DNA from: a virus
UHGV virus genome: UHGV-1351772
DNA: 64,000 bases
Reading direction: 5' to 3' (one strand)
Below are positions 8,180 through 27,481 of the stretch, piece by piece. A model generated the notes under the pieces. It had not been told where the DNA came from. It did no database searches and saw only the letters and a list, made by a program, of their open reading frames with translations. The translations under genes were made by a program, and so were the position numbers. Numbering within the stretch: the stretch's first letter is position 1; the number at the start of each line of letters is the position of its first letter.

Positions 8180-9485
8180 ATTCCCTAAGCAGTTAACGTA
8201 TCAGATCGTAACCAACCTTTCGTGTAACCTGGACTGCGAATATTGTTACGAACGTAAGTACCCACGTAACAACAAAGCAGCGGATATTGTTGATTTCTTG
8301 CACGCCTGTTTTGAACGTGATAAAAACGAACCGAATGTTGAAGTTATTATCGACATTATCGGTGGTGAACCGTTCATGCAGCCTAAACTGCTGCTGGCTG
8401 CGTTCGAAACCGCTGAGCAGTTGTGCAAAGAACACAACCGTCCGTTTATGTTTAGTATCTCCACGAACGGGACCTTGTTAGATCGTCCGTTGAACCGTGA
8501 GATTGTAGAACGATGGAAAGACAAACTTTCGGTTGGGGTTTCGATTGACGGCTTACCGGAATCCCATGACCGTTATCGTATCTTCACAACGACACGCCAG
8601 GGTTCTTACGAAGCCGCTGTACGTGGCTATAACTACTTAAAAGAGGTTGGCATTGCAGAACTCGGCGTAAAGGCGACCTTTACGTTAGAAACGCTTCCGT
8701 TCTATGCTGCGGGGATGAAGTCATTAATTGACATTACTGGCGGTGGGACAATTTCTGGAAACGTAACTTTCGAAGACGTTATGCCACGTAGCATGGCGAC
8801 GTCAATCGCTTTACAGATGATGGATGTGATAGATTATTGGGTTGAGAAAGGATTACACACCAACCCACGTAATATCTTATCGCACATCATTCCAGAAGGG
8901 TTGGATTTCGATACGATTTGGGAACCGAACTGGCGTGACCAGTTACTGTATAATGACACCGTACGGTTGAACCCAGAACGTTTACGTCCGTTCTGTGGGA
9001 CGTTAACGCACATGACGTGCTTAGGATTTGACCGTAAGATCTTTGGCTGTAACCGCTTTATGTCAACGGTAACGTCGCGTTCTGCGGTGTTTGAGTTGGT
9101 AGGTCGGGAATTCGTCAGTCTGGACAACGGTAAATTGTTAGAAGAGATTCAAACGCAATATACCAACTACCCAGAGACCTGTTTAGGTTGTCCGATGAAA
9201 CACGCTTGTGGTAGCTGCGCGGCGGCTTCTTACGAGAACGGGGAAGGAACGTTAGAAGACCGTAAAGCGTATCACGCTGAACGACGTCAGTGTGGCTGGA
9301 CGACAGCGAAACTGATGGTGGCGGAATACTGGAAACAGAAGATGGGTACGACGTCAGCAAAAGCGTTCCACGACACGAGTATGTGTTATTGTCCACGCTG
9401 TGTTCGTGAACGTGCCCAAAAGGAAAAATTATTAAGAGAAGCCAAAGATGAAACCAATTCTGATCAACAATATTACGAAGCGTAG
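8163..9485 (+). CDS. radical SAM enzyme with C-terminal SPASM-type domain (putative peptide maturase)
   Basis: CNLDCEYC (C-x3-C-x2-C), GGEPF motif, C-terminal CLGCPMKHACGSC (C-x2-C-x5-C-x2-C) plus further Cys; start overlaps the stop of the preceding rSAM gene. Confidence 0.85.
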   Translation: MSQVNEFPKQLTYQIVTNLSCNLDCEYCYERKYPRNNKAADIVDFLHACFERDKNEPNVEVIIDIIGGEPFMQPKLLLAAFETAEQLCKEHNRPFMFSISTNGTLLDRPLNREIVERWKDKLSVGVSIDGLPESHDRYRIFTTTRQGSYEAAVRGYNYLKEVGIAELGVKATFTLETLPFYAAGMKSLIDITGGGTISGNVTFEDVMPRSMATSIALQMMDVIDYWVEKGLHTNPRNILSHIIPEGLDFDTIWEPNWRDQLLYNDTVRLNPERLRPFCGTLTHMTCLGFDRKIFGCNRFMSTVTSRSAVFELVGREFVSLDNGKLLEEIQTQYTNYPETCLGCPMKHACGSCAAASYENGEGTLEDRKAYHAERRQCGWTTAKLMVAEYWKQKMGTTSAKAFHDTSMCYCPRCVRERAQKEKLLREAKDETNSDQQYYEA

Positions 9486-10020
9486 AATTCGACTTCTGGA
9501 TAAGTTTCTGGAAAACAGTAAGCTATTCGGTTGCTATGTGGTGATTAACGGTGAAGATTTTACCGATGACGTAAAACGCTTGCTGATTCGTCACGGTGTG
9601 ACTGTAATCATCCCAATGTACTGCACCGAACTTACTGACCTGTCGGTCGCGGAAATTGAAAAACGTAACCCAGGGTTTGAAGAACGGGTATTGGATTTCC
9701 CACGTCACAAAATTGCGTTTCTACGCCGCTCTTTAAGCGAACCCAGCGCAGAATCTATCACTGTGTTGGCATTGTCCTTCCCCGGCATTACTATCTTCGC
9801 AACACGTAACCCGAACTCACCGATTGATGGGTTTTACGATGAGCGAGAGAAATTTAATACCGTGATTTTTCCTGAGCTAACGCCAGAAGAATGCCAGGGT
9901 ATCCGTATCGATTGGGAATCGGATTTCGACACAAGATTCCGTCATATCGATTTTGAACTGTTAATCGAATTAGGGTTGATTAAAGGAGACGATGAATGTC
10001 TGCTACTGGTGAAGGCTTAA
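9448..10020 (+). CDS. hypothetical protein (operon member)
   Basis: Long ORF whose start overlaps the rSAM-SPASM gene end; no motif recognised. Confidence 0.5.
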   Translation: MKPILINNITKRRIRLLDKFLENSKLFGCYVVINGEDFTDDVKRLLIRHGVTVIIPMYCTELTDLSVAEIEKRNPGFEERVLDFPRHKIAFLRRSLSEPSAESITVLALSFPGITIFATRNPNSPIDGFYDEREKFNTVIFPELTPEECQGIRIDWESDFDTRFRHIDFELLIELGLIKGDDECLLLVKA

Positions 10021-10667
10021 CGAAAGAAGAAATCCGTCGTCGTTATTTTGCGCACGATTTACCGATTGACCGTCATGGTAACTACATGGAGAAAATCGGT
10101 AGCGAAGATCACGGCCGTACAGGGTTTTGTGCGTTACTGCACTATAAGTTGATTGATGGGATGTCTGATCGCGAAGCATTGGAACAAATGCGTAACTACG
10201 ACATGTCTGAAATCGAAGCACGGTTTACGCTACAGAAAGCGAAAGACTTTGTTAACGACACGTTGGGGATTGACCTGGAAGAAATTCGTACAGGTTTACG
10301 TTCCACAGTGCGGTACATCTTTACCGATGTTCAGAAAATTCTAAGCGCTTTGGAATTCCGTTATCAGGATGCACGCTATGCTGAGATTCAGGTAGGTGAT
10401 TTCACTTTCCAGGCAGATGAGAAGTCACAGGTAGCACTGAGTCGTTATATCCAGTCAGAAACTGCGCCAGCGTATTGGTTAACGGCTAACAACACCCGTA
10501 TCGAACCGTTTACGTTAGAACAGTGCAAGACGTTGCTGGCAGCAATCGTTGAGCGCGATCAAAGACTACACCACGCAATGTCTGAGCAGAAAAGAGAAGT
10601 CAGAGCTTGGGCTGAAGCACGTGATTACGATTCAATTAAAGCGTTTGCGTTAGAGCAAGGGCTGTAA
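9996..10667 (+). CDS. hypothetical protein (operon member)
   Basis: AAAGGAG RBS 7 nt upstream; last gene before a bidirectional terminator. Confidence 0.55.
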   Translation: MSATGEGLTKEEIRRRYFAHDLPIDRHGNYMEKIGSEDHGRTGFCALLHYKLIDGMSDREALEQMRNYDMSEIEARFTLQKAKDFVNDTLGIDLEEIRTGLRSTVRYIFTDVQKILSALEFRYQDARYAEIQVGDFTFQADEKSQVALSRYIQSETAPAYWLTANNTRIEPFTLEQCKTLLAAIVERDQRLHHAMSEQKREVRAWAEARDYDSIKAFALEQGL

Positions 10668-10688
10668 TCGACAGCGAAAAAAAATAGT

Positions 10689-10725
10689 ATACCTACCTCC
10701 TATTACGGGAGGTAGGTATTTTTTC
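10689..10725. terminator. bidirectional rho-independent terminator between convergent genes
   Basis: Perfect 11-bp stem TACCTACCTCC / GGAGGTAGGTA flanked by an A-run upstream and a T-run downstream. Confidence 0.7.
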
Positions 10726-11256
10726 TTAGGACGTAAAACCGTCCAGCTCACCGTTGGTGGTGGCCAGGTCAATACGATTATCAACAACTTTCGGCGTAAT
10801 TACGAAAGTTGCCATTACACCCGGTTTATATCGGAGGTTCTTTTCAGTAACGGTACACGTTACCGTACGCAGAGTGACGTTATCATGTTCGTCTTTCTGG
10901 TCTTCGGTGTTGTACACAACGTCGCCTGGTGCGATAGCATCGTTCGGTTTAACTTTATTGATGTAATATTGTAACCAAGCGCGCAGTTCATTTTCTTGAA
11001 CCCAGCGAGACAGATCGTCAGTTAGTTCAATACGGCCTACAACACCCGGTTCCAGACGATCGTAATGCAGTTCGATTGCGCCTTTGAAATTCTCAGAACC
11101 CGGTAGTGCAGTCATGGTAACTTTGGTATTCTTACCTTCGCCTTCCAGCGCAGTAGGGAGACCAAAGGACACTTCTTTATCAGTTACCTGATGTGGTAGC
11201 TCAGTGTTAGCAGCATTATAAAGCGCGACCAACATCATCTGGTTAGTAGCTGCCAT
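10726..11256 (-). CDS. hypothetical protein, small-protein paralog family (member 1 of 6)
   Basis: 176 aa; shares with 11323..11853 the pattern NTK(V/I)T(M/L)TA...(S/Q)NFKG...HY.RL and the C-terminal ELDGFT. Confidence 0.6.
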   Translation of the reverse strand: MAATNQMMLVALYNAANTELPHQVTDKEVSFGLPTALEGEGKNTKVTMTALPGSENFKGAIELHYDRLEPGVVGRIELTDDLSRWVQENELRAWLQYYINKVKPNDAIAPGDVVYNTEDQKDEHDNVTLRTVTCTVTEKNLRYKPGVMATFVITPKVVDNRIDLATTNGELDGFTS

Positions 11257-11304
11257 TATCTTAAATCCTCAATAGTACGAGTTAAAGAAATATCGGGGAG
11301 GTTA

Positions 11305-11314
11305 CCCCCCCCCC
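11305..11314. repeat. homopolymeric C10 tract (G10 on the minus strand), intergenic
   Basis: Ten consecutive C read directly; lies about 50 nt upstream of the minus-strand start at 11256. Confidence 0.9.
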
Positions 11315-11322
11315 GACTTTAA

Positions 11323-11853
11323 TTATTCTTTAGGAGACGGTGCGGTGAAGCCATCCAGTTCACCTTCCAAACCGCTCAGTGCTACTTTCTCAGGAGCCGG
11401 AGGAGTAACTTTATACGTCGCGACAGTACCAGGCAGGAACTTCAAGTGGCCAGCCACAACCGTTACCACGTAAATGGTTTTGCCTTCTTCTTCACGGGAA
11501 ATAGTTTGCAGGTCGTTTTCACCGAACTCGTCATCGGTGTACCCTTTCTCAGCCATGGCTGCGTTAACTTTCGCCAGGATCTTCGTTGGTGAATCGAAAT
11601 CGGTAGTAGGTGCAGTTACTTCAACTTCACCAACGATGTCGCAGGAAAGACGAGTATAGTGGAATTCTTTCTCGCCTTTGAAGTTCTGGCTTTCTGCCTT
11701 GGCGGTCAGAGTAATTTTAGTGTTGCGGCCAGCTTCTCCGGTGAACTCAGCGACAGCACTAAAATTAACATCATTTACAGTCAGCTTAGAAGCAGTTTGG
11801 TTGTTTTTAGCAATTACAATCTCGATAAGCTGCTGTTGAAAAGTTTTAGCCAT
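11323..11853 (-). CDS. hypothetical protein, small-protein paralog family (member 2 of 6)
   Basis: 176 aa tandem paralog of 10726..11256. Confidence 0.6.
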   Translation of the reverse strand: MAKTFQQQLIEIVIAKNNQTASKLTVNDVNFSAVAEFTGEAGRNTKITLTAKAESQNFKGEKEFHYTRLSCDIVGEVEVTAPTTDFDSPTKILAKVNAAMAEKGYTDDEFGENDLQTISREEEGKTIYVVTVVAGHLKFLPGTVATYKVTPPAPEKVALSGLEGELDGFTAPSPKE

Positions 11854-11992
11854 TGTTTTACCTCGTAAGTAGTATGGGTGGTTTGCATAGTATTGTTCGG
11901 ATTATAGAAGTGTTGTTAATAGTTATGACAGACAGCAGTAAGGGTTGTCTGTAAAATTATTATTTTTTAACTTTTTATAGAAGGGTGAAAAC

Positions 11993-12472
11993 ATGCTAAA
12001 ACGTTTTCTACTTGTTGTAACTGCAGCACTTTCGTTGGCAAGCTGTGCCCTACAACCCACCGCTAACGGTCAATTCTCGACTGTACCCGTAGAGCCACAC
12101 GACATGGTTATTTACACCTGTATGGGTGTAGAGCAAGATTTTGTAAATTATAAACCTGTCGTCAATTCGACTAACCTAATGTTAGGCTCAGTAACTGTAA
12201 TCGATACTGGTGCTAACTGGGTAGCCACCTGGCCAAATGGTAAGATTGAGTCACCCCAACTTTATAAAGATCTATTAGGTAAAGTTAATGGGAATATCGA
12301 TCCTATCACGGGACAACGTTACTACCGTGTAAATGGGTTACTTTCAAAAACACCAACATTTGCGTATTCTACTTTAGAATATAAAACGGGTGATGGTAAA
12401 GGCATTACTTTCTTCCACTGTAAGGAAGGTGTAGCTCCTGACACTGGAACAATGCTCCATCCTGCGGAATAA
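11993..12472 (+). CDS. putative lipoprotein (moron-like; candidate superinfection-exclusion factor)
   Basis: Signal peptide with lipobox LASC (MLKRFLLVVTAALSLASC); isolated plus-strand gene with AT-rich upstream region and its own terminator. Confidence 0.6.
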   Translation: MLKRFLLVVTAALSLASCALQPTANGQFSTVPVEPHDMVIYTCMGVEQDFVNYKPVVNSTNLMLGSVTVIDTGANWVATWPNGKIESPQLYKDLLGKVNGNIDPITGQRYYRVNGLLSKTPTFAYSTLEYKTGDGKGITFFHCKEGVAPDTGTMLHPAE

Positions 12473-12480
12473 TAAAAACT

Positions 12481-12520
12481 ACCCTACTCCTTATCGGGAG
12501 TAGGGTATATTCATTTTAAC
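12481..12520 (+). terminator. rho-independent terminator after the lipoprotein gene
   Basis: Stem ACCCTACTCC / GGAGTAGGGT followed by a T-rich stretch. Confidence 0.5.
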
Positions 12521-12590
12521 CGCTAAATCGTGCGTAAAACGCGTTCTAAGCGTCTTTATACAAATTAAGGTATAAACACCTTAGAAATAG

Positions 12591-13106
12591 TTAAATCTCG
12601 ACTAAGGCGCTCCAATCGATTGGTTTTTGCTTAACAACCTTCACAGTGCCACGATTTGGTGACCAGAAAGTAATGTTAGGCTGGTTACGAACGTCGATGT
12701 GTAACCAACTGATGTCACATTCAATAAAGTGAATGAACGGAAACTCGTCGGGGTTAGCAGCGATATAGTCGTGAACCTGTTTTACGGTGCTATCCAACAA
12801 CGTTGCATCAATGGCGTTACCGAATTTGTGCTGACTTCCTGAATCGGCGTAAAGCTGTAACGCACGTTGTTTATAACTACCACCCTTAGGCTTTTCTTGA
12901 TTAATAAAGAAATCTAAGGTTCTTAGTCCGCGTTGTTGTGAAGCGGTTGAGTTAATCACCATTCTACCGAAACGATTACGAATCTGTTGTAGCGAAATCA
13001 TTAACAACGGGTTCATAAACCGGATTGCAGAATCGCCGTATTTGGCAATATAAGACTGTGGTACTAACTCTCTGAGTTTAAAATTACTCGGATTTGGATG
13101 AAACAT
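12591..13106 (-). CDS. peptidase M15-like peptidoglycan hydrolase (L-Ala-D-Glu endopeptidase-type lysin)
   Basis: Zn-binding signature SQHKFGNAID (S-x-H-x-x-G-x-A-x-D) and downstream WLHID, as in M15 phage endolysins. Confidence 0.65.
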   Translation of the reverse strand: MFHPNPSNFKLRELVPQSYIAKYGDSAIRFMNPLLMISLQQIRNRFGRMVINSTASQQRGLRTLDFFINQEKPKGGSYKQRALQLYADSGSQHKFGNAIDATLLDSTVKQVHDYIAANPDEFPFIHFIECDISWLHIDVRNQPNITFWSPNRGTVKVVKQKPIDWSALVEI

Positions 13107-13758
13107 CTTCCCTCCCTGACAGAAAAGCGCGTTTGATGTTCAGGTATTTGACATTAACGGGTTGTTCTGTGGTGATATCAATACGTTCGTGGTTAGGGAT
13201 TGCAGGTTCCTTAAACTCGCGAACGAATAAATAGTTTCGATTGTAATCTAACGTACGAAACGCGTTAGTGCTGTAGGATGGTTTTGCATTAGGATCTACG
13301 TAGGCATCCCAGCCGAATTCAACAACGGCCTTATAAAATGTTTGGCAGATATAAGGCGAGATTTCCAACGACTGCATAATACGCAGGAATGTTAAGTCAG
13401 AGAACTCTTTATCGATAATACGCGAAACGTTACCACCCGGTGTCATGGGATAGCTACGCTCCGTGTTACATTTTTGATAGAGTAAGTCGTGAATACACGC
13501 AGCCGGTGCCCAAGGCCCGTCAGGATGGAAAATTCCCTGTAAGCGTTCGGGTATCGACGCTAAGTCCGTTACGAACCCTTTCGGAGCGGTTAACCACAGT
13601 TGCGTGTCAGGTAATACACCGGTTAAATAAACCGCACGGTCTAAGTGTACGTGGTCGTGATAAATCTCACGTAACGTAAACGGATAATGGTAATCCTCCG
13701 TTAATACAAACCACTTATTATCTAAACGTTTATATTGAAGCTTTTCCATTACCCACAC
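13084..13758 (-). CDS. DUF1353-like protein
   Basis: Motifs GFVTDLASIP and IHDLLY recalled as typical of DUF1353. Confidence 0.45.
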   Translation of the reverse strand: MWVMEKLQYKRLDNKWFVLTEDYHYPFTLREIYHDHVHLDRAVYLTGVLPDTQLWLTAPKGFVTDLASIPERLQGIFHPDGPWAPAACIHDLLYQKCNTERSYPMTPGGNVSRIIDKEFSDLTFLRIMQSLEISPYICQTFYKAVVEFGWDAYVDPNAKPSYSTNAFRTLDYNRNYLFVREFKEPAIPNHERIDITTEQPVNVKYLNIKRAFLSGREDVSSKSE

Positions 13759-13865
13759 CTTTCCTTACAAAAACCAGAAGAATTCTTGCCCACGTTTTTC
13801 GTCTTTACGTTTTCGACCAGACGTTAACGCTTTCCACAATAACACTAAGAGTTTAGCAAACCAGT

Positions 13866-14456
13866 TCATTTTACTAACCCCGCTTTCACCGCATAATCTG
13901 CCATTTCTCTGAACACGCGGCCGTACCAGCCGTAGGTGTATTTCTCGTTTCTCTTACGTTTTTCGGAGATTTCCGTGTAGTAAGTTACTTGGTGCGAGAT
14001 TAACGCAAAGATTAAAATGCTTAACCCTTTATCTTTACGGTATTTCAGATACGCGTTCAACGCGCCCAGCGTTTTAGGCCCCATTCCACCGTCAGCATCG
14101 ATGTCCGCGTAGAGTTTACCTTCGTTGTTCAACACGTTGAGAATACGCTGGAGCGATTTCACGCAGTTGGCACGACCTGCGTTAATTCCGAAATCAAACA
14201 TCCGGTCAGCCAGTAAAGGCGAGATAGCAAAAATCTCATCGAGTTTGAGTTTCTTCCACCAACCACGATCGTAAATGTCAAAAGCTTGAACACGGGTAAG
14301 GTCTTTCATTTTCCCTTTATAACCATACTCACGTGCAGTCGTTACCGTGATACCGTGGTTCGTTTCTGCACCTAAGTCGTCAGGGTCGTTGACGTACCCG
14401 CCTTCTAAATCCGTTTTGGATTCAATAATACCTTCTTTAGTCCAACGTTCAGCCAT
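13866..14456 (-). CDS. GH108-family lysozyme-like protein with C-terminal peptidoglycan-binding domain
   Basis: N-terminal EGGYVNDPDD...ETNHGIT signature (GH108-like); C-terminal region resembles PG_binding_3. Confidence 0.65.
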   Translation of the reverse strand: MAERWTKEGIIESKTDLEGGYVNDPDDLGAETNHGITVTTAREYGYKGKMKDLTRVQAFDIYDRGWWKKLKLDEIFAISPLLADRMFDFGINAGRANCVKSLQRILNVLNNEGKLYADIDADGGMGPKTLGALNAYLKYRKDKGLSILIFALISHQVTYYTEISEKRKRNEKYTYGWYGRVFREMADYAVKAGLVK

Positions 14457-14474
14457 TTTGTTTAACTCCCATTT

Positions 14475-14517
14475 TACACAAAAAAGAAAAACGTTGGGTG
14501 GGTTTTACCCCACCCAA
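14475..14517 (-). terminator. rho-independent terminator (minus strand)
   Basis: Stem GGGTGGG / CCCACCC followed on the minus strand by a T-run. Confidence 0.6.
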
Positions 14518-14520
14518 ATC

Positions 14521-15018
14521 TTACTTGGATTTTCGTGCACGAGTTGTACGTGCTTTAGCTGCTTTTGGCGCAGGTTCAGCATCTTCAGCAGTTTTACGTG
14601 CAACGCGCACCGTAAAACCGCCTACCCAGGTTAAACATTCAGGGCGGAAGAAAATACCGTGTTCGATTGCGCTACCGTCTAACGGTAACTCGCCGACCTG
14701 CTCTACCCACACGTCGTCTTCTGTAAGGGTTAGGCTGTACTGCTCGTTAATGACGGGCAGTAAGTCAGCGGTAGTCGTTGCAGATTCTACCAACAGCTTC
14801 GGTAATACGTTCAGGAAATATAAACCTGCGTCAATGCGGTTATACTGGAACGTTTGTTCGTTAGTGTAACCGAGATTCTTAATTGACGCAACCGTAATTT
14901 CGGTATTGTAAGTACCGGTGGTCACAACCGGATCGCCCAGCGTGACTTTGGCGGTGTCAAGCTCAGCGTCTGGGTTAGCCTTTTTAATAAGGTCGAAGAT
15001 AGTTTCTTGACTGGTCAT
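14521..15018 (-). CDS. hypothetical protein, small-protein paralog family (member 3 of 6)
   Basis: 165 aa; N-terminal (I/L)xxLI(K/N)...TxxDV pattern and ADLL..IN..Y.L block shared with 15032..15880. Confidence 0.55.
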   Translation of the reverse strand: MTSQETIFDLIKKANPDAELDTAKVTLGDPVVTTGTYNTEITVASIKNLGYTNEQTFQYNRIDAGLYFLNVLPKLLVESATTTADLLPVINEQYSLTLTEDDVWVEQVGELPLDGSAIEHGIFFRPECLTWVGGFTVRVARKTAEDAEPAPKAAKARTTRARKSK

Positions 15019-15031
15019 TACTGTAATCCTC

Positions 15032-15880
15032 TTAATCTAAGAATCCCGGTAAGACCGAATTAGTTTTAGCTAATTCAATCTTCGACTTTGGACGATCGGT
15101 ACCGTTAAAATGGATTAACAGATTACCGGTCAGGTTAGAACACAACGGGCTGAGCGTCAGCACCAACACACGTGTGAACTTCGTATTTGCGCCTTCGAAA
15201 CCTGCGGTAGGACCATCGTAGATAACCTTAGCACCGTACAGGTTATTAGCAGCGTTCTTAGGTACACTTACCCATTTCTCGTCAACGACGTTATCCAGCT
15301 TAGTAGCTAACTCAGCCAGGTCGACGGTGTCGTTAATGGTAATCGGATCGAGGTAATCTTTTTCTGCGGTGAAGTCAATTGGGTAAGAATAAACTGCAGC
15401 GTTACCTTTCTTAGTGGACGGATACTCTACCAGGTTTTCTAATTGAGTAACAGGTAACAATTTAGCCAGATCAATAGGGTCGCGTAGCGTGAGTGTCACC
15501 TCGCCACACCATTCGTAGGATTTCTCGTTAGCGGTAAGCTGATGGGTTTCACCTTCAACTTTCGCATCAATGATATCCGACGGCAGAATATTTAAATCGT
15601 ATTTTGCGTTGATTGCATTAAGCAAATCTGCAGCGGTTACAACACCGTCGTTACCGAATACCAACTCACCTGTTAGGTATTCGGGCAAATTACGACGATG
15701 ATAAGTCACAGTTAAAGTAGTAGACTCATCGCCTTTGAGTTTAGAAGTCAGAACCACCTGGGTATCAACCCCAGTACCAGTAGGTTCGCCGATATCAACA
15801 TCACTGAAGGTCAATGGCGGAACAATATTGTTTTCAGTGTTGATGAGTTTTAGCAGTTTCTGTTTTGACGTAAGAGACAT
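15032..15880 (-). CDS. hypothetical protein, small-protein paralog family (member 4 of 6, extended)
   Basis: 282 aa; LTFSDVDIG and AADLLNAINAKYDL blocks. Confidence 0.55.
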   Translation of the reverse strand: MSLTSKQKLLKLINTENNIVPPLTFSDVDIGEPTGTGVDTQVVLTSKLKGDESTTLTVTYHRRNLPEYLTGELVFGNDGVVTAADLLNAINAKYDLNILPSDIIDAKVEGETHQLTANEKSYEWCGEVTLTLRDPIDLAKLLPVTQLENLVEYPSTKKGNAAVYSYPIDFTAEKDYLDPITINDTVDLAELATKLDNVVDEKWVSVPKNAANNLYGAKVIYDGPTAGFEGANTKFTRVLVLTLSPLCSNLTGNLLIHFNGTDRPKSKIELAKTNSVLPGFLD

Positions 15881-15984
15881 CGCGTTAACTCACAATAAGT
15901 AAAAAGGTTTAAGAGGTTGTTTTACATCCCTCAGCCAGCATAGGAATAGTCGAGTAGAGAGTAAGCAAAGTAGTGTCAAAATAA

Positions 15985-16040
15985 CAAAAAAGAAAAGGGA
16001 AAGAAAATTAATTCCGCTATAGACCGAAGCCTATAGCGGA
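15985..16040 (-). terminator. rho-independent terminator (minus strand)
   Basis: Inverted repeat TCCGCTATAG / CTATAGCGGA followed on the minus strand by a T-rich run. Confidence 0.55.
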
Positions 16041-16046
16041 GTGAGA

Positions 16047-16478
16047 TTAACGAACGTTGTGTGCTAAGTACATCAGGGTCCGGGTGTCGATATCACGAGA
16101 AGTTTGCGACATCTGACTCAGTAGAGTGCTGGCAGTAGGATCGTTGTAAACACGACTTAACCATTCGTCAACCATTTCTGGTACAGTGTCGACCAGAAGC
16201 GGATAGTTAAGATTTTCCAGTGTGTATTCAACGAATTCGTGCATCAGATTCTGGTCACGATGCATAGTGTCACCTAACTCACCTACAGGGTACTCTTCGC
16301 GAGGACGTTTACCCCAGCTACAGATGTGCATGTAGTTAGTATTCACAATTTCCTGATATTCTTCTAACTTAACTAAATCGAAATCAGTATTTGGACGACA
16401 GAAACCTGCTAAAACGCCCAGAGCAATAGGGTTGTTACGAATGTAGTTACGGATATCATCTTTTAATACGAAAAACAT
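16047..16478 (-). CDS. hypothetical protein (paralog of 17698..18126)
   Basis: 143 aa; N-terminus L.DDIRNYIR..P..VLA resembles 17698..18126 (LRDYIRQYPASIPVLA). Confidence 0.55.
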   Translation of the reverse strand: MFFVLKDDIRNYIRNNPIALGVLAGFCRPNTDFDLVKLEEYQEIVNTNYMHICSWGKRPREEYPVGELGDTMHRDQNLMHEFVEYTLENLNYPLLVDTVPEMVDEWLSRVYNDPTASTLLSQMSQTSRDIDTRTLMYLAHNVR

Positions 16479-16494
16479 TTTAATACTCCTTTAG

Positions 16495-16530
16495 GTAAAA
16501 ACAATAATAGAGGGGTGAATTGTCACCCCT
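16495..16530 (-). terminator. rho-independent terminator (minus strand)
   Basis: Stem AGGGGTGA / TCACCCCT plus T-rich tail on the minus strand. Confidence 0.55.
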
Positions 16531-16554
16531 TAGATGAATTTAGAAAGTCATCAA

Positions 16555-17676
16555 TTAACGAAATTTTTGACAAGCAGGGCAATCGCAGCCTGCGCCAGAA
16601 GATATTTCTCTAAAGAGAGCATCGAACGAATGCTCATTATTTTTAAGAAAACGAACTGACCACAAGTCACGCAGATGAGTTTTTAACTTTCCGATAATAC
16701 CGGGTTCATAGTTGAGTAGAATGGTAAGTGTATTGTCTGTGTAAGTCCACTGACGGACTTTCTCAGGAAACCAACGAGCGATATCACGCATAAACGTATC
16801 GGCATCTTCTTTCCCAATAGTAGTGATTGTCAGAAGACGTAGACGATTGTCAACAATCTCATTAATGAGGTTGCTAATTTCTTCGTCAAGAGCAGCGTCC
16901 CACCATTTCCATTTAATGGTGAGTTTTTCGCCCTCGAGTTTAGTCTCTACTTTGGTAGGATAGAAAGCTGTCAAGGTATCATTAATCGCTTCGGCTTCTG
17001 GACCAGTGTAAGTAAAGGAATACGGTTCTTCGAACCATTTAATAACGTCAGGATCATTATCAACAAGCACAGTTAGAGTGCCGTCGACATAATTAGACCC
17101 ACGAATTTTCTCTTTGTATTCGTGAACAGCACTACGCATGACTGCATCTGCGTCTTCTTTTCCGATATCACGAACCGAAATAAGTCGAACGGCGTCTTTG
17201 ACGATCAGAGCAACGACGATGCGAATAGCTTTCATGATCTTAGGATCGAATTCCTTCATCCTGAAAGCTAACATGTCGTATTTTTGACTAATGTATAAGG
17301 CATCGGGATAGAGGATATTTAATGCCTCTTTAATTTTCTCGATCGTTTCAACATCATATTGATTTACGTATGTCGAGTCTTCATTGTTTATAGACCACTG
17401 CTGCTCTTCGACTTTCGGTTGCTCTGTCTCGGCCGCTTTTACCTTGGCGTTCTCGGCTACCGGGTTGAGTAACTCACCGATTTCCACCGCAATAGTGTCG
17501 CAAAGATAATCGTTGCAGTGAGTCCAGTAGAACACGATGCTTTCATCGTTGACCTGCTCTACACGGAAATGTACACCTTTATCCAGGAATATGCGATAAA
17601 GTTGATCAAGTAACTGTGCTTCAGGAACCGGACGGATTTCAGTTTTAACGAGCGGAGTAATTTCGATATTAAACAT
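16555..17676 (-). CDS. hypothetical protein with internal repeats and C-terminal Cys cluster
   Basis: Two internal repeats (IGKEDADAVMR... / IGKEDADTFMR...); C-terminal GAGCDCPACQKF. Confidence 0.55.
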   Translation of the reverse strand: MFNIEITPLVKTEIRPVPEAQLLDQLYRIFLDKGVHFRVEQVNDESIVFYWTHCNDYLCDTIAVEIGELLNPVAENAKVKAAETEQPKVEEQQWSINNEDSTYVNQYDVETIEKIKEALNILYPDALYISQKYDMLAFRMKEFDPKIMKAIRIVVALIVKDAVRLISVRDIGKEDADAVMRSAVHEYKEKIRGSNYVDGTLTVLVDNDPDVIKWFEEPYSFTYTGPEAEAINDTLTAFYPTKVETKLEGEKLTIKWKWWDAALDEEISNLINEIVDNRLRLLTITTIGKEDADTFMRDIARWFPEKVRQWTYTDNTLTILLNYEPGIIGKLKTHLRDLWSVRFLKNNEHSFDALFREISSGAGCDCPACQKFR

Positions 17677-17697
17677 GTCATTTTTCCTTTTGGTAAA

Positions 17698-18126
17698 TTA
17701 GCTGTAATTGTGCTTAAAGAACTCTAAAGCACGCTGGTCGTTTGTAATCGCCGTTGTGGACATTCGTTTTAACGCCTGTCGGCAGTAAGCGTCGCTCAGA
17801 ATACGTTGCTGCCAAGCGTTGACTATTTCCGTCACTGTTTCCCCTTCTACAGCAGTGTTAAGTTTATCGAGGCAGTGTCGCCCTAACAGAAATGCAACCG
17901 CATAATCTGTAAACATCTCGGTGCCGAAATCCCCGTCGGGATAATCGCAACGTTTACGTACTGACGTTGCGGTAATGGAGTTATAAGCGGTTTTTATTAT
18001 CTCGTGGAACTGTTCCACCGTTAAGATGTTAACGTCAGTACCTGAAAGCGTAAGCGAAGCCAGTACAGGAATACTGGCTGGGTACTGACGGATGTAATCA
18101 CGCAAATCTGAATTGAGCGTTTTCAT
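17698..18126 (-). CDS. hypothetical protein (paralog of 16047..16478)
   Basis: 142 aa; N-terminal similarity to 16047..16478. Confidence 0.55.
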   Translation of the reverse strand: MKTLNSDLRDYIRQYPASIPVLASLTLSGTDVNILTVEQFHEIIKTAYNSITATSVRKRCDYPDGDFGTEMFTDYAVAFLLGRHCLDKLNTAVEGETVTEIVNAWQQRILSDAYCRQALKRMSTTAITNDQRALEFFKHNYS

Positions 18127-18874
18127 TCATGAACCCTTTTGTTTTTATCCAATATAAGCAATTTGCACCAACCTGAACTGGCTCGATCCTATCAAGTTCT
18201 TCCATCAGAGCCAGATAAGTTTGCCAAACGGTTTGACGTTCGAAGAAAAATGATGTTGTGCCATTAGACCTAAGACATGCACGTACTAAGTGCTCGGTTT
18301 GTGAAAACTGAATATTAACGTTGTTCAGGACACGTTGAATAGTATCAGAATCGTAATGCGCGAAACGATCTTTGTGTACCAGAACCATCTCTATAGGCGT
18401 GGAATCGTCATTGACTGAAAAAGGTTCGTCAATGCGAATAAGGTTATTCCGGTGAGGTACTCCATCGTAACCGAGCGTATAGACATCCATACCTTCCCCC
18501 GGGTTACAGTCGAAATACTCCAGAATTTTATCAGCGTTTTTCTCCGCCGAACGTTTAAAGTAAACAATATAAACGGTATGACTAATCTTCTCAACTTCGT
18601 ATACTTTTTCGGAGAACGATCTGAAAATTGCCATGACGTTTAATCTTCCTTTGTCTTTAGCAACGTAACATGCAACTAAACACGTTGCTTCACCACGAAG
18701 AACATCGTCAATGAACTCTTTTGCTCGTTTTAATTCATCCTCGTTAAAACCACCGATAGTGAGCTCATTCCCATAAATCTGATAAGCAAGATGTGGAGTA
18801 ACGTTTTTCAGGAAACTCGTAATGATGTGCGTGTATGCCCAAAGACTACTATTCTTAAACTCGATAGTTTTCAT
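18098..18874 (-). CDS. hypothetical protein
   Basis: 258-aa ORF overlapping the downstream gene start by 29 nt. Confidence 0.5.
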   Translation of the reverse strand: MKTIEFKNSSLWAYTHIITSFLKNVTPHLAYQIYGNELTIGGFNEDELKRAKEFIDDVLRGEATCLVACYVAKDKGRLNVMAIFRSFSEKVYEVEKISHTVYIVYFKRSAEKNADKILEYFDCNPGEGMDVYTLGYDGVPHRNNLIRIDEPFSVNDDSTPIEMVLVHKDRFAHYDSDTIQRVLNNVNIQFSQTEHLVRACLRSNGTTSFFFERQTVWQTYLALMEELDRIEPVQVGANCLYWIKTKGFMNENAQFRFA

Positions 18875-18918
18875 TTTATTTTCCTTTTGGTTTTACAAGC
18901 TGAAGCGTTAATTTACGC

Positions 18919-19413
18919 TTAGAGGTGTTTTCCGATAACTTCCGAAACTAATTCGTAAAGGTCATCGTCACTGCACACGTCTACGCTAATTCCGATATCG
19001 ATACTACGACTGCGGAACCCTACTTTGAGCGTTTTACCGAATTCGGTTTGTAGGGCTTTATAGAGTCTATTCTTATCTTCTTTAAAGAGAGGAACAGGTA
19101 GTCTAACAGTGAACTTGTAATGTTCTTTCGAAACAAGTTCGTTAGAATAATTAAAACGTTTAGCCACACGAGTTCCGATAATCTGTGTTATCAGCTTAAA
19201 CATTTCTTCGTCGCTATACGGTGTTGCACCATAACCGATATCAATAGAATTTCTACGGAATCCTGCGCAGAATAATGCACCGAATTGCTCACGGAATTCT
19301 TTGTGTAGAATATCTTTTTCTACGTCCCACAGCCCGTAACCCAAGTCAATCGTGAATTTGTATTTTTCTTTGTCGACTAATTCGTTAGTGTAATCAAGTC
19401 TAGTGAAGTTCAT
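18919..19413 (-). CDS. hypothetical protein with internal tandem duplication
   Basis: AGGAGA RBS before the ATG at 19413 (track start 19464 is GTG inside the upstream hairpin); two homologous halves (YTNELVDKEKYKFT / YSNELVSKEHYKFT). Confidence 0.55.
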   Translation of the reverse strand: MNFTRLDYTNELVDKEKYKFTIDLGYGLWDVEKDILHKEFREQFGALFCAGFRRNSIDIGYGATPYSDEEMFKLITQIIGTRVAKRFNYSNELVSKEHYKFTVRLPVPLFKEDKNRLYKALQTEFGKTLKVGFRSRSIDIGISVDVCSDDDLYELVSEVIGKHL

Positions 19414-19442
19414 GGTATATTCTCCTAAAATGGTTTCGTTAA

Positions 19443-19490
19443 GTGAGAGTAACTGAACTCTCACCTAGGTAATATATATCTGAAAATATT
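19443..19490 (-). promoter_or_regulatory. conserved promoter-like motif with 5' hairpin (copy 1 of 4)
   Basis: Minus-strand reading: AT-rich, CAGATATATATTACCTAGG, then hairpin GTGAGAG/CTCTCAC directly upstream of the RBS of 18919..19413. Confidence 0.5.
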
Positions 19491-19494
19491 TTTA

Positions 19495-20761: not shown

Positions 20762-20795
20762 CTTATCTCCCTCGGTGTTCCCGAGGGAGAGCTAA

Positions 20796-21077: not shown

Positions 21078-21079
21078 TT

Positions 21080-21595
21080 TTACCCCCGGTGCAAGAAAAT
21101 ACGGTTAGTGTTTTCGAATTTCGGTTCTGTCCACTCCAGTTCCCAGTAAGCCTGGTTAATATCGCGAGACGTGAGTTTCAAATTCGAAACGCCGGGGATT
21201 TCGATCTGCTGCAGTAAATTAATAATCGTCACCAGCTCTTTACGAGGACGGTTCCAGATAACTTCAAGATACTCTTTCAGACGCTCTGGGTAAGCAACGG
21301 GGCGAATATAAACTAGCCCAGTGGGATACTCAATTGCTGAGGGTGTTCTTGGCACTAACCAAACCCAGTCTTTTAATAGCGGCCCTGAGTGGTAGTTAGA
21401 GAGTTGAGTAAGCGCATTTGCGACCGAACAACAACGGAAGTAGGTGATATCCCAATCGTGTTCATGGCAATTTCGCGCAACGATAACTTTTAAACGGTCA
21501 ATAGGTTTACCGTCGATGGTCGTAACACCAGGTTGATTCGCCAGAATCTGACGTTCACGTTTAGTATAAAGATTCATGTTAATATTTACTGACAT
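21080..21595 (-). CDS. hypothetical protein
   Basis: 171-aa ORF; GGAG RBS upstream of the start. Confidence 0.5.
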   Translation of the reverse strand: MSVNINMNLYTKRERQILANQPGVTTIDGKPIDRLKVIVARNCHEHDWDITYFRCCSVANALTQLSNYHSGPLLKDWVWLVPRTPSAIEYPTGLVYIRPVAYPERLKEYLEVIWNRPRKELVTIINLLQQIEIPGVSNLKLTSRDINQAYWELEWTEPKFENTNRIFLHRG

Positions 21596-21621
21596 TTAAT
21601 GCTCCTTTAGGTAAATGGTGT

Positions 21622-21631: not shown

Positions 21632-21646
21632 TAGGTTAATGCTTCG

Positions 21647-22489
21647 TTATTTAAGATTCTGAATTTCTCTCATCTCGTTACAAAACTTATCAAACAACTG
21701 GGCGTATTTGTCAATGTGATTTTCGAACTCCCCAAAAAGGTGGCGTGAAAGGCGTTCGCTGACTTCCTTTTCGTATTTCTCGAGAACGTGTTTAAAAGAT
21801 TCACTGTCTCTCTTAATTTTCTTCGCATGGGTTTCCAAAGTTTTAAGAAGTCGTGGTTCGTTTTTGATCAGGAGATGCAAGTCACCTTTAAGATATCTGC
21901 TTTGATAAATCATTATTTTGGCGAGCTTGTATTCACCTTTCACAACACTGATAAGCTCATCAGCACCGGCTTCTGTAATGTTTTCAACGGTAAATAGCAG
22001 AATATTTTCGCCCTCTATATCTTTCAATAGTTGATTTATAGGAGCTCGATAAGCAGTATATTCATTGCTCACTTTAAGCATGTTGTCTTCAATCACATAC
22101 GTGAATTTATCGCTGAAAAAATGGTATAGTATTGGTCCAATTTTATCTGCTTGTTTGGGGGTAAGTGGGAACTCCTTTGTGTAGTAAGCGTTGCCTTTCG
22201 TAGTTGGCTTGTCCTTTAGCCCACAAGTCGACTGTTCTGGTAATTCTGGATCTTTAGACACCTCAACAGATCGTACTAAAATATCCGTAATCGCACTAAT
22301 GAGTTTGTTAGGAAAATCGACATCACCTTCTACCCAGAAAATGTTAAATGATTCTGATTTAACTTTATAGTAAAAGGTGTACGTTTTTTGTAGTTCAGCG
22401 ATTTCCTTAATTTGTTTTTCAGTAGGGATAGGGGAGATCTTAAACCTGCTGATGACTTTTTCTTCTTCGGTGAGTTCGAACTGTAACAT
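21647..22489 (-). CDS. hypothetical protein
   Basis: 280-aa ORF. Confidence 0.5.
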   Translation of the reverse strand: MLQFELTEEEKVISRFKISPIPTEKQIKEIAELQKTYTFYYKVKSESFNIFWVEGDVDFPNKLISAITDILVRSVEVSKDPELPEQSTCGLKDKPTTKGNAYYTKEFPLTPKQADKIGPILYHFFSDKFTYVIEDNMLKVSNEYTAYRAPINQLLKDIEGENILLFTVENITEAGADELISVVKGEYKLAKIMIYQSRYLKGDLHLLIKNEPRLLKTLETHAKKIKRDSESFKHVLEKYEKEVSERLSRHLFGEFENHIDKYAQLFDKFCNEMREIQNLK

Positions 22490-22500
22490 GTTATAGTTCC

Positions 22501-23914: not shown

Positions 23915-26041
23915 TTAAATAACTACCCAGCTTTTACCATCAGAGCCAATCTGCATTAGCGTAATACTTTCATTGGTCTCAATGGGTTTGGCAAGACCTT
24001 CCGTCCCACTCTTTGGAGTGATGAGAACGTTTGAGTTTTCCGGTTTAACGATGATCTTACCAGCCTTATTTGCCACGATCTGTATATTTCTACCCACACT
24101 ATATTCTAGATCAGGAATAGTAAGTTGGCCGCCACGGTTGGTGGCTGGGAAATACACATAAGACGACACATCTTCCTCAGATAACACTATACCACCAGAA
24201 TCACGATTGACCGAGATCTCAAACTTAGAAATATCGATATCGTAGGCAGTAACTTTCGTAATATCCGTCAGAACCAATTCGTTCAAATTGGTCTTAGCTG
24301 TACTGTTCGCCAGATCAAATGGGGTACCTTCCGTACCGTCAAGCACAGGCGTGACTTTGATTTTATTGTCACCCGGATAAATGATTTCAAACGTATGCCA
24401 GTTATTATCGTACGCACCAAAAGATCCTAATTGCACATTCTGCTTTTTATGATGCATCAGATAAAGATTCGTACCGTCGGTCTGTAAGAAAAAAGACATT
24501 AAGTACGGGTTCGTATCAGCCACACCAGCGTCAGCAAGTGTAGTACCAGAAGGTAGGTCGGACGCGGAAATACGCCAATAAAGTCCTAATCCGAAACGAT
24601 CTGCTGCTAAATCACCTTTTAGTCTAAAAGTAACGGTCAGACGTCCACCGTAACGTATCATGTCCGCAGCAGATGTCATTGACTTAGTTACATTCCAAGG
24701 TTTCATCGTTACAGCCTTTCTTAATTCGACGAAATGCCCGTTTCCATCCTCAGAATCTTGCACGGTTACGTTACAATCAACGATATTGTTCCAACCCTGC
24801 CCTTTCAGGGAACCATCTCCACGACGTCCGTTATAACCCACAGACTCTACTAATGGGGTATAGCTTCTTACCACATTCATATTGTCTTTGAGCTCTTTAG
24901 TGTCGTTCTTCGTCAGGAGCATTGCACCATTCGCTGTTCTTGATAATATCTCAGCAGCTATTCTCTCTGAGATAATACCGCGTCGTGCCCAAGAACTGAA
25001 ATGGCTATTCCTTGTTTCAGACGTCCAGTTTTTATTACTACGGGTGGCAGCACCGTAGTAGGCAGCACCAGCGATATCAGGATCGTCAGTGGGATCATTA
25101 GTCGGTACACGTTGGCCATTATCGTCGTACATGAATGGAACAAAAAAGATATTTTTTTGTTCATTGTTACGATAATTACCGTATATGGTTTCATATTGAA
25201 CAGGATATTTTTCCTTCCAATAGTAGGTAGTGTCCCCGCAGATCCATGGTACTTCGGCGGTGTCGTACTCGGGCATCTGAGAGAGATGGTCAGAGAGATC
25301 AGTTCGGAAACGCTCTACCATTGCCATAAATAACGCTGGTTGTTGTGCGTAACCTACTTTAGTCAGATCATACTCCCCCTGCATCCACACTACAGCCAAG
25401 AGTTTATTTTTAGGATTAACGTCCAGAGCTTTTTTGGTCCGGCTAACTAAATCTTTATAAAGAGGTTTTTCCACCCCCCATACCGATGACGTCGCAGAGG
25501 CTCCTGTGGCTTCATCGAAGGTACCTTCTGCACCACCCGTGAAAGCAGAACCGCCGCGTGCGCAGGGTACTAGTAAGATACCAGCGTTGCTAGGAATATA
25601 CGGGAGAAGACGCTTCGCGATGTGTAGACCTTGACCCACACATCCGTATTCACCTTTGTCCAAATTGGCTTTGGGGTGCGAGAATACGGACATATCTTGC
25701 ACGTCGTGCAGACAGTGATCCGCTGGAATGACGTCGTTATACTTACAATCAGCACCATTAGGCGTTACCTTCGCACGGCGCGCCATTTGTTTAATCCGCG
25801 GATCGGGAGCGTCCAACGTCGCTGGTAAAGGCAATCCTTCACCATAACTCATCGCATTAGATTGCCCGGCTATAGGGATCACGAAGTAATAATCCGGTTC
25901 CGTCACCCCCCCCCCTTGAAGTTCTGCAATATCAATTTTATATTCTTTTTCTTCCTTAGAAAGGAGAACTACCGCACCTTTGAGATCGCCAGAGAAATTG
26001 TCGAGTTCATGGATACGTTTCTTTCCAATTGGTTGAACCAT
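23915..26041 (-). CDS. tailspike/tail-fibre protein with sialate-O-acetylesterase-like (SASA/SGNH) domain
   Basis: GGAGGT RBS before the ATG at 26041 (track start 26053 is TTG); N-terminal 40 aa homologous to the N-terminus of the 1519-aa fibre; GQSNAM esterase motif. Confidence 0.65.
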   Translation of the reverse strand: MVQPIGKKRIHELDNFSGDLKGAVVLLSKEEKEYKIDIAELQGGGVTEPDYYFVIPIAGQSNAMSYGEGLPLPATLDAPDPRIKQMARRAKVTPNGADCKYNDVIPADHCLHDVQDMSVFSHPKANLDKGEYGCVGQGLHIAKRLLPYIPSNAGILLVPCARGGSAFTGGAEGTFDEATGASATSSVWGVEKPLYKDLVSRTKKALDVNPKNKLLAVVWMQGEYDLTKVGYAQQPALFMAMVERFRTDLSDHLSQMPEYDTAEVPWICGDTTYYWKEKYPVQYETIYGNYRNNEQKNIFFVPFMYDDNGQRVPTNDPTDDPDIAGAAYYGAATRSNKNWTSETRNSHFSSWARRGIISERIAAEILSRTANGAMLLTKNDTKELKDNMNVVRSYTPLVESVGYNGRRGDGSLKGQGWNNIVDCNVTVQDSEDGNGHFVELRKAVTMKPWNVTKSMTSAADMIRYGGRLTVTFRLKGDLAADRFGLGLYWRISASDLPSGTTLADAGVADTNPYLMSFFLQTDGTNLYLMHHKKQNVQLGSFGAYDNNWHTFEIIYPGDNKIKVTPVLDGTEGTPFDLANSTAKTNLNELVLTDITKVTAYDIDISKFEISVNRDSGGIVLSEEDVSSYVYFPATNRGGQLTIPDLEYSVGRNIQIVANKAGKIIVKPENSNVLITPKSGTEGLAKPIETNESITLMQIGSDGKSWVVI
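25906..25915. repeat. homopolymeric C10 tract (G10 in the mRNA) inside the tailspike coding sequence
   Basis: Ten consecutive C read directly; encodes GGG plus the first base of Val at codons 43-46, at the junction between anchor and enzymatic domain. Confidence 0.9.
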
Positions 26042-26363: not shown

Positions 26364-26879
26364 TTAATGATCTCCGAAGGTTAATGCACAATTATCTGCG
26401 GTAACGATTAAATCGTCGTCTTTTGTTACTGCGGCTTCTTCACCGTTACCGAAAACCAGAACAGAGAATTGACCTTTATAACCTAATGAACCAGGCGATA
26501 CCTGCAACGTTACCGCGTCTTTTCCTACAGTAAATGAATCATCTGTTAGATCTTCAGCTTGTAAGTTACTGCCACAAGCTGCGTTAATCGCTTCGATTAA
26601 ATCGTGTGTGGTAAACCCTTCCCCGGCTACTTTTACCAGAATAGGTTGCTGGTTTAACCACCGCTCTGCGGTTAAACGGTTGTAATAGATCTGCAACGTT
26701 CTGTTTCCAGGACGCTTAATCTTTACAACGGCAGTGGTGTCACGATTCATCTCTTCAGTAGGATTTACGTTGCTGAACTCAACCTCGTTTTCTTGCAGAT
26801 CGAGCTGAAGGTCGTGGTTGATCAGCGATATAACCATGTTAGTTGAAGTTAATGATAAATCTGGTGTGAATTGCCCCAT
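26364..26879 (-). CDS. hypothetical protein, small-protein paralog family (member 5 of 6)
   Basis: GGAGGT RBS before the ATG at 26879 (track start 26894 lies in the RBS); N-terminus FTPDLSLTS...ISLINHD parallels 33100..33660. Confidence 0.55.
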   Translation of the reverse strand: MGQFTPDLSLTSTNMVISLINHDLQLDLQENEVEFSNVNPTEEMNRDTTAVVKIKRPGNRTLQIYYNRLTAERWLNQQPILVKVAGEGFTTHDLIEAINAACGSNLQAEDLTDDSFTVGKDAVTLQVSPGSLGYKGQFSVLVFGNGEEAAVTKDDDLIVTADNCALTFGDH

Positions 26880-26977: not shown

Positions 26978-27481
26978 TTAGCTAATTCTCAAATCACGTA
27001 GTGCGCCTGTTGACTTCATCACGTTTTGGAACGCAGCGCTGATGTTATTAGTCCAGTAATAATGCTGACCGTTAATAACTTGCTGGTAAGACAGCGCGCA
27101 GGTGTTGCCACCTAAGTTTACAGTGATGTTAGAGGCTCTGCCGCCTTGTAAGTAAACCGCTAAAGTAGGCTTTGCGTTAGCAACTACCGTCGTTAACTGT
27201 AACTCGATACCTACTAAAGTTCCCACCCCGCAGTTACCAGCGTTTTGAATGGTTCCCTGATTTTTCTGGTTTAACGGCCAGCTTGGTCCTACTGCGCCCC
27301 ATTTCTTACCTAAAGAATCGCTATATGCAGCGGTTGCAATTTTACAGCCCATAGATCGTCCCACCATTTGACTCATCATAAAAGGTCTACCCAATCCTAA
27401 TTTACTACCCGCAGCGCTCATCCATTGTTGGCCAGTTTCATTCCTAGCTGAAGATCCGACCCATCCTGACGCTACCCCCAT
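26978..27481 (-). CDS. glycine-rich protein (short paralog of 27498..28280)
   Basis: GGAGGG RBS; N-terminus GWVGSSARNETGQQWMS matches GWIGSSAKAEAGNGWMS of the neighbour. Confidence 0.55.
   Translation of the reverse strand: MGVASGWVGSSARNETGQQWMSAAGSKLGLGRPFMMSQMVGRSMGCKIATAAYSDSLGKKWGAVGPSWPLNQKNQGTIQNAGNCGVGTLVGIELQLTTVVANAKPTLAVYLQGGRASNITVNLGGNTCALSYQQVINGQHYYWTNNISAAFQNVMKSTGALRDLRIS

Follow-up and report, generated by a model that had tools for sequence, protein, structure and literature searches.

Introduction

Intergenic homopolymers act as switches in bacteria such as Bordetella, which carries poly-C in its fim promoters, and Neisseria, which carries poly-G in the porA and opc promoters; in both, the tracts lie between the -35 and -10 elements of sigma-70 promoters. 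The homopolymer tracts of Bordetella have been surveyed (PMC1891110). Among phages, hypermutable polyG tracts are described for those infecting Campylobacter (Sorensen et al., 2021, Cell Rep 35:109214, as cited in PMC10579305). A third system of interest is the transcription of phiKZ, whose terminators were mapped by ONT-cappable-seq to the motif BCCYCCCCHWWDGGGRRGGBYTTATKYYGT, with a 7-bp CCYCCCC/GGGRRGG stem (PMC10914365). The late promoters of phiKZ have TATG at the start site as their sole conserved element, without a spacer (PMC7598289).

Here we describe a G/C homopolymer (tract 1, positions 11305-11314) in a 64,000-nt stretch of viral DNA from genome UHGV-1351772, which is referred to as the window. 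The run forms one arm of a predicted RNA hairpin that joins two known classes, the phiKZ-like intrinsic terminators and the hypermutable phage homopolymers. Like the phiKZ-like terminators, the hairpin has a homopurine/homopyrimidine stem (7-10 bp), a short loop and a T-rich tail, and it is intergenic, just past a stop codon, in the same phage group (multisubunit phage RNA polymerase, Seoulvirus synteny). The order of the phiKZ motif is not kept, however, because the G arm is 5' and CCUCCCC is 3', and the tail carries GAUAUUUCU and AUAUUUCUUU rather than TTAT. Also unlike the phiKZ terminators, the G arm is a pure, over-long and length-variable homopolymer, and the hairpin is known here from sequence rather than from transcript mapping.

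Closer in position is the terminator between the first two paralogs of Seoulvirus SPAsTU (MH221129.1), a canonical AGAGGGGC-UAC-GCCCCUCU hairpin with a U-run. It is syntenic with tract 1 and, as at tract 1, a hairpin comes right after the stop, with the next ribosome binding site (RBS) about 25-35 nt downstream; it differs in its unrelated stem (AGAGGGGC/GCCCCUCU), clean U-run and lack of a homopolymer. The likeness to the Campylobacter phages lies in G8-G11 tracts that vary between otherwise identical genomes of lytic-type phages, some of which, in the present lineage, are in receptor-binding genes that they place in or out of frame. Tract 1 differs from these in being an intergenic hairpin arm rather than coding sequence, and in belonging to a jumbo phage with a host in the Enterobacteriaceae. 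With the Bordetella and Neisseria switches it has in common a G/C homopolymer of ~10 nt upstream of a gene and a length polymorphism, yet tract 1 has no flanking hexamers and pairs with a complementary arm downstream.

Results

The proteins encoded in the window are 35-40% identical to those of SPN3US/CR5/phiEaH2-type jumbo phages. Gene order is shared with the Salmonella phage SPAsTU (two radical-SAM genes, two small genes including a DUF4376 gene, tandem paralogs on the opposite strand and the endolysin region), a phage that encodes RNA polymerases of the split multisubunit type, as phiKZ-like phages typically do. By these sequence relationships, we assign the window to an SPN3US/phiKZ-like jumbo phage of Enterobacteriaceae with a genome of ~225 kb. 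Many metagenome and run assemblies, as well as NCBI records, contain near-identical contigs of ~222-228 kb, and assemblies of E. coli, Shigella sonnei and Salmonella enterica list homologous proteins. The window and GCA_001292545.1 (CYGL01000001.1) have 0 mismatches in 12.5 kb and differ by single-base indels only; the latter is therefore another assembly of the same phage. Complete genomes of the lineage have been filed as circular, non-mobilizable "plasmids" (NZ_CP173450.1 from clinical E. coli 98232, 221,873 bp; NZ_CP134650.1 from Enterobacter ludwigii, 222,441 bp), and WGS-style contig names (JACXXQ01, QZLY01, SKEP01) hint at further cases of this type. Such deposits suggest a carrier or pseudolysogenic state in cultures. 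A search of IMG/VR with the exact flanks of tract 1 found no match because the window has a private extra G, and two scans of GTDB representative contigs gave none either. We found nothing specific in the literature on this phage, its accessions or poly-G in jumbo phages.

The minus strand codes for nearly all genes around tract 1, so a transcript would carry G10. The elements of the locus, in the direction of transcription, are:

11323-11853, minus strand: upstream DUF7941 paralog (176 aa), whose TAA stop (11325-11323) precedes the hairpin by 5 nt
11305-11314, G10 on the minus (sense) strand and C10 on the plus strand: tract 1
11292-11317, minus strand: predicted RNA hairpin, with GUCGGGGGGG (11317-11308), loop GGGUAA (11307-11302) and CCUCCCCGAU (11301-11292)
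11282-11291, minus strand: U-rich tail AUUUCUUUAA directly 3' of the stem, with AAAGAAU upstream completing the A-tract/U-tract flank
10726-11256, minus strand: downstream DUF7941 paralog (176 aa), with its RBS GAGGA at 11270-11266
10689-10719, both strands: bidirectional terminator hairpin that closes the paralog pair, ATACCTACCTCC...GGAGGTAGGTAT with T-runs

The flanking paralogs are 33% identical to each other (E=6e-25); both match Pfam DUF7941 and phrog_4862, and both have weaker matches to "virion structural protein" families. The window encodes five DUF7941 paralogs, all on the minus strand (10726..11256, 11323..11853, 14521..15018, 15032..15880 and 26364..26879), several of which have a terminal G-E/D-L-D-G-F motif. 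An AlphaFold model of the downstream paralog (pLDDT 86) matched many predicted "virion structural" proteins of phiKZ-like phages and one "tail fiber" (phages RAY, PhiPA3, Phabio, Eowyn and Moabite), and the matching module occurs alone or inside larger proteins of this group. Against the PDB, the fold search returned no match with E below 0.07 and the sequence search no meaningful match. Based on the modeled fold, the DUF7941 paralogs are most likely virion components, possibly associated with the baseplate or fibers.

Tract 1 occupies the 66-nt gap separating ORFs 11323..11853 and 10726..11256, and 48 nt separate its 3' end from the downstream ATG (11256). This confirms the initial annotation, which had placed a 10-nt C10/G10 tract between tandem paralogs, about 50 nt upstream of 10726..11256. 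Its further claim that three 10-mer G/C homopolymers are more than chance would allow also holds. G/C runs of exactly 10 nt start at 11305, 21622 and 25906 of the window (G+C content 44.4%), against an expectation of 0.018 (Markov) to 0.030 (iid) for runs of at least 10; the Poisson probability of at least three such runs is about 1e-6 to 5e-6. Runs of up to 6 nt fit the iid or first-order Markov expectation, and the window has none of 7-9 nt. The other two tracts are where the annotation had located them (21622-21631 and 25906-25915), but the one at 25906 is not intergenic, as it lies in the minus-strand CDS 23915..26041. The uninterrupted run of tract 1 is within the range of a homopolymer contingency locus (~8 or more), and it is pure in about 17 assemblies. 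We considered and rejected a G-quadruplex, because a lone G10 without nearby G-runs cannot give an intramolecular quadruplex and there are no other G-runs near 11305-11314 to serve as partners.

On the sense strand, the gap reads TAA-UUAAA-GUC-G10-UAAC-CUCCCC-GAU-AUUUCUUUAAC...GAGGA...AUG. The predicted hairpin begins 5 nt past the TAA of the upstream paralog and AUUUCUUU comes next, which is the layout of an intrinsic terminator. The stem has 10 bp, 7 of them G-C, and closes a 6-nt loop with a predicted energy of about -20 kcal/mol; the structure is the same in the minimum free energy and centroid folds. Seven nucleotides of G10 (11314-11308) are paired in the stem and three (11307-11305) are in the loop, and the A-rich and U-rich flanks of the hairpin pair with each other in the fold. 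The tail AUUUCUUUAA is U-rich without a clean U-run and reaches the threshold of the scan (5 or more T in 8). The hairpin ranked second in a terminator scan of the minus strand from 9000 to 28500, and a window-wide scan identified about 20 similar intergenic hairpins, most with one homopurine and one homopyrimidine arm. Its z-score against dinucleotide shuffles was only -1.5, a modest value because any pair of a G-run and a C-run folds well. No Rfam family was detected in 9000-28500 at a permissive threshold. Runs of A8-A9 on the plus strand (U-runs in the sense orientation) are over-represented in the window and coincide with terminator tails, as at 26329-26337, 33677-33685, 49038-49046 and others.

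The gap was also searched for other regulatory elements. There is no TATG or other promoter-like motif from the hairpin to the downstream ATG, and no sigma-70-like hexamer pair spans 11305-11314 (34 scan hits vs. 36.6 in shuffles). An alternative in which the CCUCCCC arm pairs with the Shine-Dalgarno sequence downstream was unsupported; when the G arm was removed, the fold had an energy of -6.9 kcal/mol and the Shine-Dalgarno sequence lay in a separate small helix.

The length of tract 1 varied among the assemblies of the lineage (L numbers are our designations for relatives):

G8: L032
G9: L004, L011, L012, L013, L035, E. coli 98232 and Enterobacter ludwigii
G10: the window, L001, L002, L010, L014, L031, L033 and CYGL01
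G11: L022

Genomes that are 99.2% identical differ in having G10 or G9. Among genomes 96-100% identical over 6.5 kb, indels were found at three places: tract 1, the A/T-rich flanks of the next terminator (a 6-nt insertion and a one-base T-run difference) and one window-specific base. Strains have either T8 or T7 as the T-run of that terminator (window positions ~10677-10684). The predicted energy of the tract 1 hairpin was nonetheless flat from G8 to G13 (-19.3 to -20.3 kcal/mol), dropping only below G7, and the loop grew from 4 to 9 nt over this range (4 to 7 nt over the natural G8-G11). The energy is flat and only the loop is resized because only seven Gs pair with CCUCCCC, which makes on/off switching via hairpin stability unlikely. 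Length changes at tract 1 probably have little effect, and a graded effect of tract length may exist, since loop size can affect terminator efficiency. All relatives hold 1-4 Gs beyond what the stem needs, a surplus that buffering alone does not account for. The initial annotation had suggested that the tracts may be promoter or UTR-length switches. Slippage-like length variation between near-identical genomes agrees with this idea; a promoter or UTR-spacer mechanism at 11305-11314 gains no support, given the missing hexamer pair, the conserved hairpin and the flat energy over G8-G13.

Two single-base insertions are peculiar to the window. One, at 11317, is 2-3 nt from tract 1 (AAAGTC-G10 vs. 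AAATC-G10) and the other, at 21635, is 2-3 nt from the tract at 21622-21631 (AACCTA-C10 vs. AACTA-C10). Both repeat the base of their own tract and both are absent from every other assembly, two of the same isolate among them. They are probably consensus artifacts beside homopolymers.

About 17 assemblies yielded 12 distinct versions of the hairpin. Across these, identity is 95.6% for the stretch made up of loop, 3' arm and tail (TRAC-CTCCCC-GATATTTCTYTAAC), and GATATTTCTYTAAC is invariant in relatives. The corresponding values are 76% for the spacer to the ATG and 50% for the 25 nt upstream, a stretch that takes in the C-terminal end of the upstream coding sequence. A pure G-run at tract 1 was retained in every close relative examined. 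In L003, at 57% protein identity, the site has an unrelated hairpin (GGCGG-UAAAU-CCGCC), and SPAsTU has its canonical terminator there. The persistence of a hairpin at this site across sequence turnover is the strongest argument for the structure as the functional unit. The stem is nearly invariant among close relatives and shows no nucleotide covariation, so that structural support comes only from the non-homologous hairpins.

Additional G/C runs of the window and its relatives provide a context for the variability of tract 1. The region from ~23.9 to 32.9 kb of the window encodes a T4-like long tail fiber, two Gp38-like adhesins and a SASA-esterase spike, and it contains two of the following elements:

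21622-21631, minus strand: tract 2, C10 on the sense strand, located after the stop of 21647..22489 and ahead of the RBS of 21080..21595
25906-25915, minus strand: tract 3, G10 on the sense strand (C10 on the plus strand), inside the SASA-esterase spike gene (23915..26041, minus strand), where it reads ELQ-GGG-VTEP
26901-26943, minus strand: sibling hairpin AAUC-GGGGGAGGGG...CUCCCC, upstream of another DUF7941 gene

A stop codon lies 15 nt upstream of tract 2, and the ATG of 21080..21595 lies 26 nt downstream; the closest clade has C9-C10 here, and other relatives have C4, C5 or CC. No RNA structure was predicted for tract 2 or tract 3. The Gly-Gly-Gly encoded by tract 3 is a linker that joins a 46-aa N-terminal module to the SASA-esterase domain, with the codons CAA-GGG-GGG-GGG-GTG in the window clade and CAG-GGC-ACG (G3, no tract, 706 aa) in 95%-identical genomes. 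Of 10 contigs, 9 have an in-frame G10. The remaining one, L043 (ERR2368003), has G11, which splits the esterase into 61 + 663 aa, and G9 would give an immediate TGA. Elsewhere in this gene, at window positions 25152-25158 (T7 on the plus strand), the two ERR975218/CYGL01 assemblies are one A short and the esterase is split into 360 + 335 aa; it is intact, at 708 aa, in other strains and in the window. The discrepancy reflects an assembly error or else a difference in an A/T homopolymer. The initial annotation had named tracts that are absent from close relatives, or variable there in sequence (not only in length), with no expression effect as grounds for refuting its idea. This applies in part, as relatives 85-98% identical have C4, C5 or CC at tract 2 and G3 at tract 3, whereas tract 1 keeps its pure G-run.

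A coding tract that the window lacks was identified at the start of a Gp38_N-type adhesin gene (window homolog 26978..27481, minus strand, start at 27481). In a 95%-identical clade (L016-L018, L020 and L021, at about 438-450), the gene begins with ATG + G8-G11 + TAACC, and the window has ATGGGGGTA (G5). Four of these genomes have G8, G11, G11 and G11, all in frame (168/169 aa); in L021, G10 puts the gene out of frame, and the called product has 124 aa. Five genomes that are 0-43 substitutions apart over 8 kb have no internal indels outside three G/C tracts, and L017 and L021 have 0 substitutions in 8 kb yet differ at all three (11 vs. 10, 10 vs. 11 and 10 vs. 9). Ten contigs show no variation in an interrupted run (G5AG4) or in a G6 run. 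Therefore, pure runs of at least 8 are hotspots of mutation, or at the minimum have a consensus length that is not the same in all samples. The run of the sibling hairpin is A-interrupted and invariant in the window, and pure and variable (G9-G11) in relatives. Every run, read on the G-bearing strand (tracts 1-3 of the window, ~440 and ~985 in L016 and 9103-9111 in L057), directly precedes TAA, TGA or TAG. This triplet gives the coding tracts an immediate stop in one off-frame, and it is also found after the intergenic tracts. The run of L057 (an Enterobacter record) is a G9 (GGAGC-G9-TAAGTGA) in a 1.6-kb stretch without a listed gene, which may be a frameshifted gene.

The initial annotation had also proposed a count of homopolymers in relatives. 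The complete relative NZ_CP173450.1 (221,873 bp) has only two G/C runs of at least 7, which are tract 1 and the sibling hairpin, and the 212 kb of SPAsTU have no G/C run of at least 8, the longest being a single run of 7. Thus, over-long G/C tracts are not a family-wide feature, and they are lineage-specific and young. Tract 3 and the Gp38_N start tract of the relatives lie in receptor-binding genes; tract 1 does not. As described for the Campylobacter phages (PMC10579305), the coding tracts show the pattern that phase-variable receptor-binding genes would be expected to have.

Discussion

We consider it reasonably likely that G10 provides the 5' arm (seven Gs) and part of the loop (three Gs) of an intercistronic hairpin of the intrinsic-terminator type, in which variation in tract length is buffered. 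The phage RNA polymerase would transcribe the upstream paralog first, and the nascent G-run would pair with CCUCCCC (with one G.U pair) ahead of the U-rich stretch, so that some transcripts would end, or be stabilized, at the hairpin. Read-through transcripts would carry the downstream paralog, which has no recognizable promoter of its own; as neither a TATG nor a sigma-70-like pair precedes its ATG, we infer that it is probably expressed by read-through. Co-transcription of the pair with termination or attenuation at the hairpin would then set the ratio of the two paralogs. The run probably originated from an A-to-G change in a GGGGAGG-type arm, which is tolerated in the RNA (A-U to G.U). The sibling hairpin, with GGGGGAGGGG/CUCCCC in the window and pure G9-G11 in relatives, suggests how such runs start. 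Once pure, the run would be prone to replication slippage, yielding the G8-G11 seen in nature, and because it exceeds its partner arm, slippage would resize only the loop and would not create an on/off switch.

The sibling hairpin also provides an argument for a different, rather unlikely, interpretation, namely that the structure at tract 1 is a 5'-UTR element of the downstream DUF7941 gene (for mRNA stabilization, processing or translation control) that was duplicated with the DUF7941 genes, rather than a terminator of the upstream one. The sibling has the same ends (AAUC-G-run-UGA...CUCCCC) and lies 25-45 nt upstream of another DUF7941 gene without a U-tail, which points to a role in the downstream gene and against termination. 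Consistent with this, these two hairpins account for the only long runs of NZ_CP173450.1, and the 3' arm ACCUCC resembles an anti-Shine-Dalgarno sequence. However, tract 1 showed no convincing pairing between CCUCCCC and the Shine-Dalgarno sequence, its hairpin does have a U-rich tail, and SPAsTU has a canonical terminator at the corresponding position. We give still less credence to a phase-variable switch, in which tract length would alter promoter geometry, UTR length or terminator read-through and tune the downstream paralog heritably and reversibly. In favor of such a switch, G8-G11 occur among near-identical genomes, all relatives keep a pure run beyond the needs of the stem, and other tracts of the lineage do give ON/OFF states in coding regions. 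Yet no hexamers span the tract and sigma-70-like hits are at the level of shuffles, late promoters of the phiKZ type have no spacer (PMC7598289) and no TATG separates hairpin and ATG, and the hairpin energy is flat over the observed lengths.

That the run has no role in RNA, being a DNA-level signal or a mutational by-product (such as a hotspot of replication or recombination, a poly(dG).poly(dC) site bound by protein, or a mutational bias of the lineage), seems to us very unlikely. The repeated rise of tracts at unrelated sites in sublineages (C4 to C10, G3 to G10 and G5 to G8-11) agrees with it, as do the absence of RNA structure at tracts 2 and 3 and the T plus stop-like triplet next to every run on the G strand. 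But at tract 1 the CCUCCCC arm and tail are conserved along with the run, the G.U pairing is sensible only in RNA, and no supporting DNA motif was found. A sequencing or assembly artifact, such as poly-G miscalls, has a negligible probability. All three tracts of the window are exactly 10 nt long and single-base insertions unique to the window lie 2-3 nt from two of them, as miscalling might produce. However, more than 15 independent assemblies, which come from different projects and include two complete circular records, contain the tract and its complementary arm; the tract is internal to contigs, and the coding tracts are mostly in frame. We therefore rejected an artifact for the existence of the tract, although its exact length in a given sample may differ from that in the assembly.

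Conclusion

At the site originally flagged, a striking homopolymer is one arm of a terminator-type hairpin, and the changes in its length probably do no harm. A more interesting lead than tract 1 is the apparent ON/OFF behavior of the coding tracts in receptor-binding genes. A ~225-kb jumbo phage that is widespread in metagenome assemblies has repeatedly evolved G/C tracts of 8-11 nt that appear to change faster than any other site, two of them placed where a one-base change would turn a receptor-binding protein off. Tentatively, and with more doubt than conviction, we propose that this enterobacterial, probably nucleus-forming jumbo phage lineage keeps a few hypermutable G/C tracts, a "phasome", mostly in its host-recognition and structural module. 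The coding tracts would switch the Gp38-like adhesin and the SASA-esterase spike ON and OFF and the poly-G terminator arm would tune read-through and with it the ratio of two DUF7941 virion proteins, making virions heterogeneous in a heritable and reversible manner. If so, the polyG strategy of Campylobacter phages would extend to jumbo phages of E. coli, Salmonella and Enterobacter. Confirmation at the read level would mean that host-recognition genes are phase-variable in a jumbo phage of enterobacteria, which would bear on host range, on the design of phage therapy and on annotation, because such genes are easily called pseudogenes.
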